A DNA stretch of 64,000 bases from Candidatus Saccharimonadota bacterium (GTDB lineage Bacteria; Patescibacteriota; Saccharimonadia; Saccharimonadales; Saccharimonadaceae): NCBI GenBank assembly GCA_026395405.1, contig JAPLYU010000001.1, forward strand, positions 250,865 to 314,864. Reading direction: 5' to 3'. The first letter of the stretch is position 1. Each line of letters opens with the position of its first letter. Of this stretch, positions 9,961-59,598 are shown in pieces. The position numbers were made by a program, and so were the translations under genes. The notes under the pieces are model-generated. The model was not told where the DNA came from, made no database searches, and worked only from the letters and a program-made list of their open reading frames with translations.

Positions 9961-9989
9961 TGGTCAAAACCATCTATTTTTGCTACAAT
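9961..9989 (+). promoter_or_regulatory. putative sigma-70 type promoter for tRNA-Glu
   Basis: TGGTCA, then 17 nt, then TACAAT. The -10 element ends 20 nt before the tRNA 5' end. Confidence 0.45.
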
Positions 9990-10009: not shown

Positions 10010-10084
10010 GGTCTCATCGTCTAACGGTTAGGACACCAGGTTTTCATCCTGGCAACCCGGGTTCGATTCCCGGTGAGATCACCA
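10010..10084 (+). tRNA. tRNA-Glu (anticodon UUC), CCA encoded
   Basis: Hand-folded cloverleaf. Acceptor GGTCTCA/TGAGATC (one G-T pair). Anticodon stem ccagg/cctgg with loop ttTTCat. T arm CCGGG-TTCGATT-CCCGG. Discriminator A plus CCA. Confidence 0.9.
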
Positions 10085-10122
10085 AAGTAAAATACCCATC
10101 CATGCGATGGGTATTTTACTTT
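10084..10122 (+). terminator. 17-bp perfect hairpin immediately after tRNA-Glu
   Basis: aaagtaaaatacccatc / gatgggtattttacttt with loop catgc. Confidence 0.55.
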
Positions 10123-10131
10123 GGTATTTCT

Positions 10132-10304
10132 TCGAAATTGAAACCGGGTTGCCCAACCCGGGTGAGAACTGCCAGTCGGCAGTTCGCAAGGCCGGAAGCC
10201 GGATGACGAACGTCACCGACTGAGGCGGGGTCGCGGAATTTTCTGAAAGAAAATATCTGTGACCGATTCCTACTTATAACATCTAGGCGTTGGCCCGGTG
10301 AGAT
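10132..10304 (+). repeat. tRNA-linked conserved structured element, copy A, ending in an interrupted duplicate of the tRNA-Glu 3' end
   Basis: Shares with 57128-57296 this order: P1 hairpin, GTGAGAA, CTGCC-loop-GGCAG, TTCGCAAGG, variable hairpins, GCGGGGTCGCGGAA, GTGACCGA. It then has cgattcc (10264-10270), about 24 nt, and cccggtgagat (10294-10304), which copy the tRNA-Glu T-loop-to-acceptor segment. Confidence 0.6.
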
Positions 10305-35050: not shown

Positions 35051-35197
35051 GGTGACAGCACATTTGTGGTTTAGTCTACTGGTGCAGTTTATTTTTATAA
35101 CTGCGGGTGGGTAACACGAATCATAAATGAGCCTACCAATAAATGTCGTACGGGCGCAACAATCTAGAACTAATATTATTTAATATAAAGGTCGAAG

Positions 35198-36463
35198 GTG
35201 CCCCGTTCTTGCGAGAAGATAAGACAAAGTAGGGTAGACGCCACTGTAGCAATGCAGTTCGGCGGGAGATTGAAAATTCGTAACCCGATCAAATTGAGAT
35301 TACCTCAAAAATCTGTTAACGCCAATAAACAGCAAACCCAGGCAAAAACTCGTCGTAGGACGAAGAGCTTGCTGAAACCATCCGTACTTGCTGTCTATGT
35401 TGGTATTTTTGTTGTTATTATTGCTTTTGTTTTTATCGGTTATCATGAACCGAAAGATACTTCAACGGTGGCAAACGCCACCACTGTTACGTCTCCGACT
35501 AGTCAGATTGACCAAACCTCGGTTGATAATGTTGTTGCTACCAATGTTGCGGCAAGCGTTGCTAGTGCGGCTAATTTGCCTATCGCTACGTCTGTTTCCA
35601 ATATGGCAGTATCAGCTCGGGCTAAAAGCCAATTCTTGCAGTCAGACAGTCAGGGCCAGGGAACAACTAAACCGCAACTTGTTGGTTCGGACACGTCAAC
35701 TAAACGTGATGTCATCAGTTATACGGTTAAAGCTGGCGATACGGTCGGCGCAATTGCTGCGCAATTTGGCATAACAAGTCAAACTATCAAATGGGCGAAC
35801 AATTTAACGTCAGATACGCCAACGGTTGGTTCACAACTGCGAATACTCCCTGTTGACGGTGTTCTTTATTCTGTTAAATCGGGCGATACGATTGATTCAA
35901 TCGCTACGAAATATGCGGTCGACAAAGCGCGCTTGATTTTGTATAACGACCTTGACATGAGTGGTCTGCAACCTAACACCAGTATTATTTTGCCAAGTGC
36001 GGTACTACCTGGAAACGAGCGTCCCGGATATGTTGCACCAGTAATTGCGACTGCGAATAATGACTACAACGTATTTTACGGTGTTTCTGGAACTGGTTTT
36101 GGCGGATCAACCTGGAGGATTGGCGTAGGAACTCCTGACAACGGACTTTATGCTCACGGCAACTGTACACTTTACGCCTACAACCGCAGGAAAGCCCTTG
36201 GCTTGCCTGTTGGCGATCACTGGGGAAATGCCGGTACGTGGGCACCAATGGCTGCATCGGAAGGCTATGTTGTTAATCACTCCCCCGGTGTCGGAGCAAT
36301 TATGGCTGACTACGGCCATGTTGCAATCGTTGAATCCTTGTTGCCAAACGGGGATATCAGTATCAGCGAGATGAACGCATATGTTTCTGGTGGCGGATAT
36401 AATATCGTTTCAGGACGTATAGTTATCGCCGGAAACACTGGCCAATACTGGTACATTCACTAA
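35198..36463 (+). CDS. secreted peptidoglycan hydrolase: TM anchor, 2x LysM, C-terminal CHAP domain
   Basis: LysM repeats (YTVKAGDTVGAIAAQFGI..., YSVKSGDTIDSIATKYAV...). CHAP Cys/His region GNCTLYAYNRR...GHVAIVE. The start is uncertain: GTG at 35198 or ATG at 35252. Confidence 0.8.
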   Translation: MPRSCEKIRQSRVDATVAMQFGGRLKIRNPIKLRLPQKSVNANKQQTQAKTRRRTKSLLKPSVLAVYVGIFVVIIAFVFIGYHEPKDTSTVANATTVTSPTSQIDQTSVDNVVATNVAASVASAANLPIATSVSNMAVSARAKSQFLQSDSQGQGTTKPQLVGSDTSTKRDVISYTVKAGDTVGAIAAQFGITSQTIKWANNLTSDTPTVGSQLRILPVDGVLYSVKSGDTIDSIATKYAVDKARLILYNDLDMSGLQPNTSIILPSAVLPGNERPGYVAPVIATANNDYNVFYGVSGTGFGGSTWRIGVGTPDNGLYAHGNCTLYAYNRRKALGLPVGDHWGNAGTWAPMAASEGYVVNHSPGVGAIMADYGHVAIVESLLPNGDISISEMNAYVSGGGYNIVSGRIVIAGNTGQYWYIH

Positions 36464-56864: not shown

Positions 56865-56951
56865 GCGCGCGTGCTGTAATTGGTAGCCAGGCCAGCTTGA
56901 GGTGCTGGTGTCCGCAAGGACGTGGAAGTTCAAGTCTTCTCGCGCGCACCA
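56865..56951 (+). tRNA. tRNA-Leu (anticodon GAG), long variable arm, CCA encoded
   Basis: Acceptor GCGCGCG/CGCGCGC. Anticodon stem ccagc/gctgg with loop ttGAGgt. Variable stem-loop gtccgcaaggacg. T arm ggaag-ttcaagt-cttct. 87 nt in total. Confidence 0.9.
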
Positions 56952-56994
56952 CTTGCAAAACCACATCTGTATCTGTATAATTCTCGAAAGGTAA

Positions 56995-57071
56995 GGGCGC
57001 TTAGCTCAGTTGGCTAGAGCATCTCGTTTACACCGAGAGGGTCGGGGGTTCGAGCCCCTCAGCGCCCACCA
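56995..57071 (+). tRNA. tRNA-Val (anticodon UAC), CCA encoded
   Basis: Acceptor GGGCGCT/AGCGCCC. D loop agctcagttggctagagc. Anticodon loop ttTACac. T arm cgggg-gttcgag-cccct region. Discriminator A plus CCA. Confidence 0.9.
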
Positions 57072-57077
57072 AATAAA

Positions 57078-57106
57078 GAAACCAATCCTTGTGATTGGAT
57101 TTTTTA
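57078..57106 (+). terminator. intrinsic terminator after tRNA-Val
   Basis: ccaatc / gattgg stem (extendable) with loop cttgt, followed by a T6 run. Confidence 0.6.
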
Positions 57107-57127
57107 TTTGGTACGCCCCGAATGGAC

Positions 57128-57296
57128 TCGAAACCCCGACGCCAAAGGTTGGGGGTGAGAACTGCCCAGAATGGCAGTTCGCAAGGCGACTTTCCGATGC
57201 AAACTATGTTTGCAATCGTGAAATCGCGGGGTCGCGGAACGTGACCGAGCCCCCGCCTGTCTGTTCGACGGAACGGGCAGGCCTCAGCGCCCACCA
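57128..57296 (+). repeat. tRNA-linked conserved structured element, copy B, ending in an interrupted duplicate of the tRNA-Val 3' end
   Basis: Same module order as 10132-10304. It ends in cgagcccc, a 28-nt G-U hairpin, and cctcagcgcccacca (57282-57296), which copies tRNA-Val 57057-57071. Confidence 0.6.
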
Positions 57297-57341
57297 AGTA
57301 CGTTATTTATCTGAACGATTTATTAGTGTTAGAATTGTAGT

Positions 57342-57515
57342 ATGGATAAAACATCCGAGGAATCAATCCAGAAGCCAGAGTTGCCGGTTGTGGACCCCGA
57401 AAAAATACAACGACTATTGGCACGGGGCGCAATGATTCAAGAAGAGTTTCAAAAACTGCAACCATCACTAAGAAAATTAGACTTAGATGATACGGGTTTA
57501 ATTTTTCGCGATTAG
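57342..57515 (+). CDS. possible small ORF (57 aa), hypothetical
   Basis: ATG-initiated MDKTSEESIQKPELPVVDPEKIQRLLARGAMIQEEFQKLQPSLRKLDLDDTGLIFRD. It falls below the ORF-track cutoff and has no clear SD. Confidence 0.25.
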   Translation: MDKTSEESIQKPELPVVDPEKIQRLLARGAMIQEEFQKLQPSLRKLDLDDTGLIFRD

Positions 57516-57736
57516 TTTATTAGAAAACTAGCCTCATTGACGAACTACTACAATCATCGTAGAATAACAACTAACTTGTTGAACTGAAACAGCTCCAAGG
57601 TACATTGACAAGCAGACAAATTCACAAGGTGGGGCCTCTGTGCTGAACATTCAACGTGGGGGCCTCATTTTGTGATATCTAATGGAGCGAAAGATATAGG
57701 CCGTATATACCTATTGTCGAACCAGGAGGTAATGTC

Positions 57737-58111
57737 GTGTGTGACATAAGCAAACTTAACTATCTGCGGGAGACCCGAGCACGGAAGCGCCAACCGGGAG
57801 TTTCATACCCAGGGTTGGTTGTCACTGACGATCATCTCATCGCCGCTCTTGAGGCAGTTTTGAAAGAGCGGGAGCTGTGCGGCATCTGCGAGCATTACAG
57901 AAGCGAGCATAGTTACTGCCATCTGGCTGGTGACTTGCCGCGGAGGAATCCGGATGAGGATCCGAACGACTACGGATGGCCGGCATGGGTACAGGACCCC
58001 AATGTTGTTGTGACCGTTCAGCTTCCACAAGCCTTCGTTCGCAACTGCGACCACTGTCACTTTGTGACGTCAGCGTGGGAGCCGTGCCGCTCGCCCGTAT
58101 CTTCGACCTAG
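57737..58111 (+). CDS. hypothetical Cys/His-rich small protein (GC-rich, GTG start)
   Basis: AGGAGG lies 8 nt upstream of the GTG. 124 aa with CGICEHYRSEHSYCH and CDHCH clusters suggesting metal binding. Composition is unlike the host background. Confidence 0.55.
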   Translation: MCDISKLNYLRETRARKRQPGVSYPGLVVTDDHLIAALEAVLKERELCGICEHYRSEHSYCHLAGDLPRRNPDEDPNDYGWPAWVQDPNVVVTVQLPQAFVRNCDHCHFVTSAWEPCRSPVSST

Positions 58112-58187
58112 TCTAGCGCAAAGGTATAGGCAGTCCGGGTTGTATAACCGGCTGCCTTGAGGGTATGTGCCTCTGTCTGCTTGTCAT

Positions 58188-58242
58188 ATCGCTTTCATGA
58201 ATGTGCATTCATGCTGATGAGTCCTAAAGGACGAAAAGCGAT
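58188..58242 (+). ncRNA. type III hammerhead ribozyme motif
   Basis: AUCGCUU-U-[CAUGAAU GUGC AUUCAUG]-CUGAUGA-[GUCC UAAA GGAC]-GAA-AAGCGAU. All invariant core nucleotides are present, with three Watson-Crick stems of 7, 4 and 7 bp. Confidence 0.8.
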
Positions 58243-58277
58243 TATTCTGGATAGACGTATTCATGTAGTCGTGAATT

Positions 58278-58347
58278 CGAGGGGTCGCCAAAGATGACCG
58301 AGCCCCCGCCTGTCTGTTCGACGGAACGGGCAGGCCTCAGCGCCCCC
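58278..58347 (+). repeat. third copy of the GGGGTCGC...tRNA-Val-3'-end module (right boundary of the 1-kb insert)
   Basis: cgaggggtcgccaaaga, then the 51-nt exact repeat including the G-U hairpin, then cctcagcgccccc. Confidence 0.65.
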
Positions 58348-58386: not shown

Positions 58387-59598
58387 ATGAAAGTTGCTAT
58401 TAGGAACAGATCATCAGGCTTTACCATCGTCGAACTCCTAGTGGTAATAGTCGTCATCGGTATCCTGGCAGCCATTACCATCGTCTCTTATGCTAATATC
58501 TCTCAAAAAGCCGTCGCCACTTCAATAACATCAGACTTAGACAGCGCCTCTAGACAATTAAAATTGTATCAAATTGACCACGGTACTTATCCAGCATTAC
58601 CACTAACTGTCTCCGGAAATAAATACTGTCCATCTGATGATAATCGGTACTGCTTTAAGGCCAGCCCCGGTAATACTTTTACCTACACTAACGTCGCTCC
58701 ATCAACCTTTAATCTAAGAAACGAAAATAGTAGTATCAGCTACTCAACCACCAATAACTCTCAGCCCACAATCTCTAATGTAACTAATTCCTCAAATACC
58801 TGTCCAACCGGCTTTATCCCGGTTCCTGGCAGCGGTACGTATGACACCAATGACTTTTGCGTCATGAAGTACGAAGCCAGTCAGGTCGGTGTCACAACTA
58901 CGCCAATCAGTCAGTCCGGATCTCTTCCTTGGGTAAATATCTCTCAAACCACAGCCATCACCAATAGCGCCAACGTCGCCGGTTGCACCGGCTGTCATCT
59001 GATAACTGAGGCCGAATGGCTGACTCTTACTCAAAATGTTCTTAGTGTTGCTAGCAACTGGGATGATGGGTCTGGTGGCCATACCGTTGGTGTTGGATAC
59101 ATTTACTCCGGCCACAACGACAACGTCCCCGCCAATGCCCTAACAGCTGATCCGAGTGATGCTAATGGCTACGTCGGTACCGGTAATGTCGCCCCGTCAA
59201 GCCAGAAACGTACTCTAGCCTTATCTAACGGTGAAGTCATTTGGGATTTTGCTGGTAATGTCTATGAATGGACTACTGGTACCATTGGTAGTGGTCAACA
59301 ACCAGGCCTAACTGGCGAAGTAGCCTACGCCTGGAAACAATGGAATAACGGTTCACTACTGCAAAATGGCTTTCCAGCTAGTGCTATGCCGGCTTATACT
59401 GGGATACCTGGTGCCAGTGGCTGGAGTTCGGCTCAAAGTATTGGCCAAATGTATACAAATTATGGTGATGCTTCGGTGCGGGGCTTCTTACGTAGTGGCC
59501 ATTATAACAATCTTGGTAACGCTGGGGTTTTCGCTTTGAATTTGAACTATATCCCCAGTGGCACGAACACGTTTATCGGCTTTCGGGTTTCCCGGTGA
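58387..59598 (+). CDS. type IV pilin-like protein fused to an FGE-sulfatase (SUMF1/DUF323)-like domain
   Basis: Class III signal RSSG/FTIVELLVVIVVIGILAAI. The C-terminus has DFCVMKYEAS, PWVNIS, AEWLTL, DFAGNVYEWT and FIGFRVSR, resembling the FGE-sulfatase fold signature. Start set at the ATG at 58387, because the 31-codon upstream extension lies in the repeat. Confidence 0.75.
   Translation: MKVAIRNRSSGFTIVELLVVIVVIGILAAITIVSYANISQKAVATSITSDLDSASRQLKLYQIDHGTYPALPLTVSGNKYCPSDDNRYCFKASPGNTFTYTNVAPSTFNLRNENSSISYSTTNNSQPTISNVTNSSNTCPTGFIPVPGSGTYDTNDFCVMKYEASQVGVTTTPISQSGSLPWVNISQTTAITNSANVAGCTGCHLITEAEWLTLTQNVLSVASNWDDGSGGHTVGVGYIYSGHNDNVPANALTADPSDANGYVGTGNVAPSSQKRTLALSNGEVIWDFAGNVYEWTTGTIGSGQQPGLTGEVAYAWKQWNNGSLLQNGFPASAMPAYTGIPGASGWSSAQSIGQMYTNYGDASVRGFLRSGHYNNLGNAGVFALNLNYIPSGTNTFIGFRVSR

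Follow-up and report, generated by a model that had tools for sequence, protein, structure and literature searches.

Among the systems described so far, derivatives of the IS200/IS605 group (palindrome-associated, REP/RAYT-type) lie in one orientation directly 3' of a conserved tetranucleotide, show neither target-site duplications nor terminal inverted repeats, are small, gene-less and multi-copy, and carry hairpins at or near both ends. The same features are found in the core of a tRNA-linked element that occurs in a stretch of 64,000 nucleotides from a Candidatus Saccharimonadota genome and is referred to here as the window; hairpin P2 of this core lies 2 nt away from the left end, and hairpin P4 is placed at the right end. 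On the other hand, clustering and motif scans of the fetched loci revealed no Y1 transposase or TnpB for the core; its sequence shows strong RNA-type covariation with conserved G.U throughout, and it is confined to tRNA-like hairpin loops and partial tRNA copies. The left hairpin starts so close to the end that it seems to leave no room for the usual IS200/IS605 guide tetranucleotide, and no guide pairing could be identified. In its behaviour the core comes closest to the non-autonomous elements of the IS200/IS605 type; membership is not established, given that no transposase was seen and that the geometry of the ends is atypical.

A second group of relevant systems comprises the tRNA-targeting integrative elements and the cis-mobilizable elements (CIMEs), which share with the element described here a tRNA 3' end on both sides, a site in the T-loop and the conservation of an intact tRNA. 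They differ from it in that the unit under study is of about 190 nt, lacks an integrase, contains a structured RNA as well as 5' and antisense pieces of the tRNA, and its core alone can be found inserted elsewhere. Introns of tRNA genes (bacterial group I and archaeal bulge-helix-bulge introns) also occupy a precise site in a tRNA loop, are preceded by a U, and show a twintron-like nesting comparable to that of the core. Bacterial group I introns of tRNA genes sit in anticodon loops, and position 54/55 is a known site of archaeal tRNA introns. In contrast to these introns, the core has neither a group I core nor a guide, it is never present in a complete tRNA, and an intact gene always adjoins it. 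The arrangement of the tRNA 3' third as sense, antisense and sense copies recalls the tandem inversion duplications that, according to work in Salmonella attributed to the Roth laboratory, reportedly arise by snap-back at quasi-palindromes; likewise, one junction is located at the terminator palindrome. However, the arrangement studied here recurs at many tRNA loci and genomes, and its third copy carries a specific structured element. Finally, the hammerhead and other small self-cleaving ribozymes are similar to the core in size and in having a multi-helix junction, but the core lacks the CUGANGA...GAAA signature and matched no Rfam ribozyme model. No description of the element was found in literature searches, and the core is apparently undescribed.

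Organization of the window loci

In the very small genomes of Saccharibacteria, only a few tRNA genes, and essential ones, would be expected. Two of the tRNAs of the window, tRNA-Glu and tRNA-Val, head the same order of parts. The intact tRNA is followed by a terminator hairpin and by an antisense copy that covers its 3' third; next come a short sense segment (S5), the core, and a copy of the tRNA from T55/C56 onward, of which the two portions are designated S3a and S3b (Table 1).

Table 1. Features of the tRNA-Glu and tRNA-Val loci of the window
Feature	Coordinates	Strand	Evidence or remark
Promoter-like site of tRNA-Glu	9961-9989		
tRNA-Glu(UUC), intact, CCA encoded	10010-10084	+	ARAGORN; Rfam tRNA 63.1 bits
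Terminator hairpin, 20 pairs	10081-10125	+	Outer pairs formed by tRNA ACC(A) with downstream TGGT
Degenerate antisense copy of tRNA-Glu 10051-10084	10122-10153	+	Local alignment score 31; 0/1000 shuffles
S5 of copy A, CAACCCGGGT	10154-10163	+	Sense copy running from the variable loop through the T stem 5' strand to T54
Core copy A, long-P3/long-P4 subtype	10164-10263	+	Covariance model R1, 43.4 bits, E 1.3e-6
P2 of copy A	10166-10185		
Joining GCAAG of copy A	10186-10190		
P3 of copy A	10191-10226		
P4 of copy A	10229-10264		
S3a of copy A, CGATTCC	10264-10270	+	tRNA-Glu C56 to position 62
Unrelated 23-nt spacer splitting the 3' flank of copy A	10271-10293	.	
S3b of copy A, CCCGGTGAGAT	10294-10304	+	tRNA-Glu T stem 3' strand and acceptor 3' strand
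tRNA-Leu(GAG)	56865-56951		ARAGORN
Promoter-like site of tRNA-Val	56953-56981		
tRNA-Val(UAC), intact	56995-57071	+	ARAGORN; Rfam
Bidirectional terminator hairpin	57082-57098	+	A/T-rich arms prolong it to ~57068-57113
Degenerate antisense copy of tRNA-Val 57039-57071	57109-57142	+	Score 32; 0/1000 shuffles
S5 of copy B, GGTTGGGGGT	57147-57156	+	Sense copy of tRNA-Val 57040-57049, 9/10 identical, ends at T54
Core copy B, common short subtype	57157-57245	+	R1, 100.6 bits, E 1.9e-17; covariation
P2 of copy B	57159-57180		
GCAAG of copy B	57181-57185		
P3 of copy B	57186-57227		
P4 of copy B	57230-57246		
S3a of copy B, CGAGCCCC	57246-57253	+	tRNA-Val C56 to position 63
28-nt hairpin within the 3' flank of copy B	57254-57281	+	Lineage-specific
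S3b of copy B, CCTCAGCGCCCACCA	57282-57296	+	What remains of the T stem 3' strand of tRNA-Val, with the acceptor 3' strand and ACCA
Type III hammerhead ribozyme motif	58188-58242	+	RF00008, 39.7 bits (under the gathering score of 48.5), E 9.5e-7
Third copy, 5'-truncated: diverged P3, P4, tRNA-Val 3' flank	58239-58345	+	R1, 18 bits, E 0.085

At the tRNA-Glu locus the antisense segment covers the variable loop, the T arm, the acceptor 3' strand and the CCA of the tRNA, and S5 is identical in its ten residues (10/10) to positions 10053-10062 of the intact gene. The boundaries of the core of copy A were set from nested copies in other loci; the C at 10264 doubles as the closing base of its P4. This core is nearly matched in sequence by a core that adjoins a tRNA-Gly in another genome locus (L004).

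A preliminary description of this DNA had noted that each element ends in an interrupted duplicate of the T-loop-to-acceptor segment of its own tRNA. The four duplicate strings indeed occupy the sites at which they had been reported, and they are beyond chance, given that exact 11-mers are confined to the tRNA and the element copies: CCCGGTGAGAT is found at 10069 and 10294, and CCTCAGCGCCC at 57057, at 57282 and, in the third copy, at 58335. In shuffled sequence, with one mismatch allowed, the mean number of matches for these two 11-mers was 0.66 and 0.46. The observation that the copied segment follows the identity of the adjacent tRNA could be extended to other genomes, where in 62 elements downstream of an intact tRNA it starts at T55/C56 of the local tRNA. 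It was also correct that the unit is small and gene-less, and no open reading frame was found inside any copy of the core. On the other hand, that account left out the 5' sense fragment and the antisense copy. The tRNA sequence that adjoins the core upstream stops at T54, so that the core lies inside a partial tRNA copy, and the duplicate first noticed is the right-hand flank, from T55/C56 onward, of a partial tRNA copy that is split by the core.

It had further been proposed that the break within the duplicate falls at the same place in both copies, which is true for this genome but does not apply to the family, in which only about 5 of the 62 elements have an interrupted flank, i.e., the two window copies and those of L056, L086 and L045. 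The 3' flank is unbroken through the acceptor strand in 27 of the 62 downstream elements, often extending past the CCA to include a second terminator as well (the exactly duplicated stretch of L001 measures 63 nt), and it ends after the T stem in 31; the retained part of this flank is the part able to pair with the upstream GGG. Contiguous flanks are present in related elements of tRNA-Glu (L044 and L063) and tRNA-Val (L124 and L129); therefore, the shared position of the break is a trait of the window lineage and not of the family. No exact copy of the 28-nt hairpin of copy B was present among the 117 loci examined.

Fold, distribution and insertion site of the core

The core has 89-100 nt in the window copies, and the element overall about 90-125 nt, with the ends 5'-GAGAAC and GTGAC-3'. 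From an alignment of 49 distinct cores, RNAalifold predicted the three hairpins P2, P3 and P4. In this alignment double-sided changes occur at 17 of the 30 pairs; 99.2% of the cells are paired, versus 24-42% when the partners were slid by 1-3 columns, and the cells with double changes amount to 247, versus 9-21 in the slid control. The covariation score of the core was reached by no shuffle. Examples of covariation in P4 are GGTCGC/GTGACC, GCCTGC/GTAGGT and GCTCGC/GTGAGT, and a conserved G.U pair in this hairpin indicates that the RNA is encoded on the tRNA sense strand. The invariance of P2 in the alignment set is explained by the search pattern, which fixed this hairpin; in more distant copies P2 also covaries (GAAGUGCC/GGCACUUC, GGAUUGCC/GGCAAUCC and GACCCGC/GCGGGUC). 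As judged from the predicted fold, the flanking T-stem GGG...CCC could close P2, P3 and P4 into a four-way junction. Copies within one genome are for the most part old, with a median identity of about 0.7, and nearly all of them are still paired.

No match for the core was obtained with Rfam 15, either at the gathering threshold or at permissive E values (up to 10 for copy A and up to 5 for copy B), and none of the known self-cleaving classes in Rfam (hammerhead, HDV-like, twister, twister-sister, pistol, hatchet and hairpin) gave a match over either core. The sole hammerhead match falls outside the core (Table 1). When the sequence was mapped by hand, an HDV-like fold was discarded because the P2 loop is too short, and a hammerhead because GGGUGA...GCAAG deviates from CUGANGA...GAAA at essential positions.

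A pattern derived from the most conserved part of the core matched at least 117 loci in genome contigs, nearly all of them labelled as Saccharibacteria, and the core adjoins more than 20 tRNA species across these bacteria. The covariance model gave 132 matches in 100 loci, and a profile search 147 copies, 140 of which have the 5' end of the element as their start. For the 123 copies with defined ends, the residues preceding the core are T at -1 and G at -2, both invariant, with G also at -3 in 121 and at -4 in 116, a target logo that is biased by the initial search, which demanded GGGT; the later profile matches all have GT, and nearly all GGT. The insertion is located between T54 and T55 in 66 of the 123 copies; about 15 others are spread over the variable and anticodon loops, the D region and further T-loop positions, and 42, which have no tRNA match close enough, could not be mapped. 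Every mapped site is within or borders a single-stranded part of the cloverleaf. The T-loop copies are found downstream of the intact tRNA in 56 cases and upstream in 10, and the copies mapped at more 5' tRNA positions (variable loop, anticodon and D) are all upstream. Removal of the core did not regain a complete tRNA in any of the 123 copies, showing that the element is seen solely in redundant, incomplete tRNA copies.

In two loci (L007 and L117) a core is nested at GGGT^CGC in P4 of another core with no target duplication, and these nested copies define the exact ends of the element as GAGAA...GTGAC. Truncated copies of the core also occur. Tandem arrays were observed in L021 (33-317), L026, L113, L052 and L066, with a unit of about 190 nt formed by the 3' flank, the terminator, the antisense copy, the 5' flank and the core, and some pseudo-tRNAs hold two cores at different positions. 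No clear clustering of core similarity was detected by genome or by tRNA type, a result that favours neither recent spread nor strict vertical descent.

The tRNA-Val locus was compared among relatives using the solute-binding protein gene located upstream of tRNA-Leu and tRNA-Val, with which 80 metagenome loci were fetched. This comparison served as the empty-site check that had been suggested for the element, and it revealed that the site is polymorphic: in L133 it is empty, with bipA straight after tRNA-Val at a distance of 37 nt; L118, the closest relative (83% protein identity), and L130 have the terminator and a degenerate antisense copy with the core absent; and the site is filled in L124, L126, L129 and the window. 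The full unit is present in L124 and L129, and L126 carries a different core subtype; the presence of different subtypes at one locus argues for turnover. Beyond the solute-binding protein gene in the loci L118-L167, tRNA-Leu(GAG) and tRNA-Val(UAC) repeatedly change order and orientation from one related genome to another, which suggests local inversions, perhaps arising through inverted tRNA copies.

Candidate explanations

For an element with the structure, insertion site, nesting, confinement to partial copies and presence or absence among relatives observed here, the explanation that we favour, and to which we assign a little better than an even chance, is that of a gene-less, RNA-structured insertion element of Saccharibacteria, mobile or formerly mobile, that targets GGGT in exposed loops. 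The target of insertion would be a GGGT that a hairpin or cloverleaf presents in one of its loops, either in single-stranded DNA or in RNA, and the mover could be a factor encoded elsewhere or the RNA of the element itself. The element may be co-transcribed with the tRNA by read-through of the terminator, and its antisense segment would pair with both flanks. Insertion of the core destroys a tRNA, and in keeping with this no copy is seen outside redundant, partial duplicates of the adjacent tRNA gene; the element would persist where such a spare duplicate absorbs the insertion. The usual layout comprises the sense tRNA, the terminator, the antisense copy and the element-bearing sense copy, and less often the broken copy is found upstream of the intact gene; in the window genome the 3' flank of the broken copy has later been interrupted. 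The tRNA duplications themselves may not be caused by the core, considering that antisense-plus-sense tRNA copies are also found without it and beside a second conserved sequence.

If this explanation is true, a widespread, multi-copy, RNA-structured element exists in Saccharibacteria outside all the families considered here, and many of the pseudo-tRNA fragments and tRNA-adjacent repeats of these genomes would be explained. In the candidate phyla radiation, it could represent either a mobility mechanism of a new kind or an additional class of functional RNA linked to tRNAs, and its sharply delimited target just after GGGT, its precise ends and its compact fold would make cleavage, ligation and protein binding testable in vitro. 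For annotators, it would mean that duplicates of tRNA 3' ends are not always marks of an integrase.

No integrase, transposase, reverse transcriptase or TnpB-like protein was found in the 64-kb window or in the fetched loci. Ten window ORFs, including those nearest the elements, were scanned singly with no recombinase detected, and 42 more gave housekeeping families and no integrase among the best 25 of 84 Pfam families. Clustering of the ORFs over 117 loci yielded no recurrent mobility gene, just housekeeping and pilin-like neighbours, the pilin-like genes being the most frequent cluster (17 of the 117 loci examined). A crude motif scan of all the sequence fetched (2,911 open-frame segments) for Y1 transposase, reverse transcriptase, tyrosine recombinase and TnpB produced one spurious match only, and the core motif had no matches in viral contigs.

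The best of the other explanations, although in our opinion an unlikely one, is that these sequences form a host-selected family of small RNAs derived from tRNA read-through transcripts, in which the core would be a functional RNA (e.g., a ribozyme, an RNA bound by a protein, or a decoy related to tRNA), the tRNA flanks and the antisense segment would provide a helix for processing or presentation, and a single fold, circularly permuted, would underlie both the downstream and the upstream layout. In agreement with it, pairing is kept in each copy despite a divergence of 30-40%, in many genera the location immediately behind the tRNA terminator is constant, no mobility gene was found in the window or the fetched loci, and no promoter-like site is present between the terminator and the core at either window locus. 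The antisense segment can also pair with both flanks, irrespective of its own placement, which is 5' in the downstream type and 3' in the upstream type (e.g., L084, L077 and L073). It is this ability in either layout, together with a fold that is kept at about 70% identity, that keeps a host function under consideration. Nevertheless, a host RNA does not account well for cores nested in cores, for truncated copies and tandem arrays, for insertions at several sites within tRNA copies, for empty orthologous sites and differing subtypes at one locus, or for a 3' flank that decays freely past the T stem.

Somewhat less probable than a host RNA would be an autonomous, intron-like or self-cleaving mobile ribozyme, in which the core would cleave and ligate at GGGU^, reverse-splice into the exposed loops of tRNA transcripts, and reach the genome via cDNA and recombination. 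The constant U/T at the end of the upstream flank, the fact that every mapped site falls within a cloverleaf loop or borders one, and the twintron-like nesting are consistent with such a ribozyme, as are the clean cases of L001 and L002, where the long duplicated flank ends at the terminator U-tract, and the hammerhead that replaces the 5' module in the third window copy. Against it, no known ribozyme or intron family matched the core (at E values up to 10 for copy A and 5 for copy B), an internal guide complementary to GGGU is absent, most copies end in C and not in G, no interrupted complete tRNA exists for splicing to rescue (0/123), and no reverse transcriptase was found nearby. A group I intron in particular was discarded, as there are three hairpins only, no Rfam match and no gene regained, in addition to the absence of the guide and the terminal C of most copies. 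A bolder form of the ribozyme proposal, which we consider more doubtful still, is that the core is a protein-independent mobile RNA, representing a new class of ribozyme of about 90 nt that reverse-splices at the GGGU starting the hairpin loop of tRNA transcripts, with the antisense segment acting as an external splint to bring the two flanks into line and the genomic copies being retro-copies fixed beside the tRNA gene.

In the preliminary description, the duplicates had been read as attL/attR scars of an integrase, as a miniature element mobilizable in cis, or as what a regular deletion has left of an integrative element that targets tRNA genes. This reading seems very improbable to us: it is true that tRNA 3'-end direct repeats from the T-loop onward bound a unit of about 190 nt in clean relatives (L001, L002, L124 and L129), that the site is polymorphic, and that T-loops reportedly serve as crossover sites for tRNA-targeting integrases (a finding ascribed to Williams, 2002), but the reading fails on the RNA covariation within the supposed arm, the presence of a 5' tRNA fragment and an antisense copy, the core-only nested insertions and the sites outside the T-loop, and no integrase was found in the window or among the recurring neighbour genes, nor a core match in viral contigs. 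The interior is a conserved RNA with compensatory changes instead of decayed cargo or arm sites, and the motif proposed as attP, GGGGTCGCGGAA...GTGACCGA, is the covarying hairpin P4 of the core RNA.

Two other candidates were also tried. An IS110-type bridge or seek RNA was rejected because the tRNA-derived pieces adjoining the core are all in the same sense and no recombinase was found. A TnpB guide RNA, in which GGGT would serve as adjacent motif and the 3' flank would be the guide, was set aside because it would be directed at the neighbouring intact tRNA, which is essential, and because the motif scan showed no TnpB-like ORF.

Variant contexts and neighbouring sequences

Some cores were found outside a recognizable tRNA copy. 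In L008, L033 and L088, the core follows GGGT in a conserved non-tRNA context that reads ACGGGTGACGTKCG..GGGT, then the core, and then ...GGAACGGACGGCAGGACCCG; this context had no Rfam match and is loosely similar to the 28-nt hairpin of copy B. The second conserved sequence mentioned above was observed in L069, L083, L114, L032, L034 and L035, downstream of tRNA-Arg, tRNA-Pro and tRNA-Gly, and reads ...TTCGGCGTAG..GTGAAATGAAAATGTGTTTACATATTTTCAT, with a shorter form TCGTGAAGCGCAG. It follows the terminator, the antisense T arm and the sense T stem, the T stems of those tRNAs being devoid of GGG, and it may be another element family at the same site. A third variant is present in L003 (after tRNA-Val) and L050 (after tRNA-Tyr), where a P2-like hairpin, GGRTWTGCC AGT GGCAWAYCC, comes immediately behind the antisense T arm, with CGSCAC and a short hairpin next; the GAGAAC core is absent.

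The third window copy bears a 28-nt hairpin identical to that of copy B, and in a pairwise alignment its sequence from P4 onward is a direct repeat of ~57227-57292. The hammerhead takes the place of S5 and the P2 module in this copy and, by direct reading, consists of CGCUUU^C, stem I (CAUGAAU/AUUCAUG), CUGAUGA, stem II (GUCCU/AGGAC), GAAA and AGCG. Since free-standing hammerheads of a similar kind occur in L066 and L053, its fusion to the third copy may be an accident of recombination.

The fused copy belongs to a segment of about 1 kb (57297-58345) with direct repeats of P4 and the 3' flank at both ends, ~57227-57292 and 58282-58345, that contains a 57-aa ORF and a 124-aa Cys/His-rich ORF with a weak match to DUF7101, in addition to the hammerhead. 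In L133, L129 and L118, bipA lies directly beyond the tRNA-Val region, versus this segment in the window. The truncated copy with its hammerhead lies upstream of a pilin-like gene (58387-59598, + strand), whose product has a methylation motif at the N terminus together with a weak FGE-sulfatase-like domain. Elsewhere in the window, a lysM-TM7 RNA (RF03005, 89.9 bits), which points to a saccharibacterial origin of the sequence, was detected at 35131-35268 (+ strand), upstream of a 421-aa ORF.
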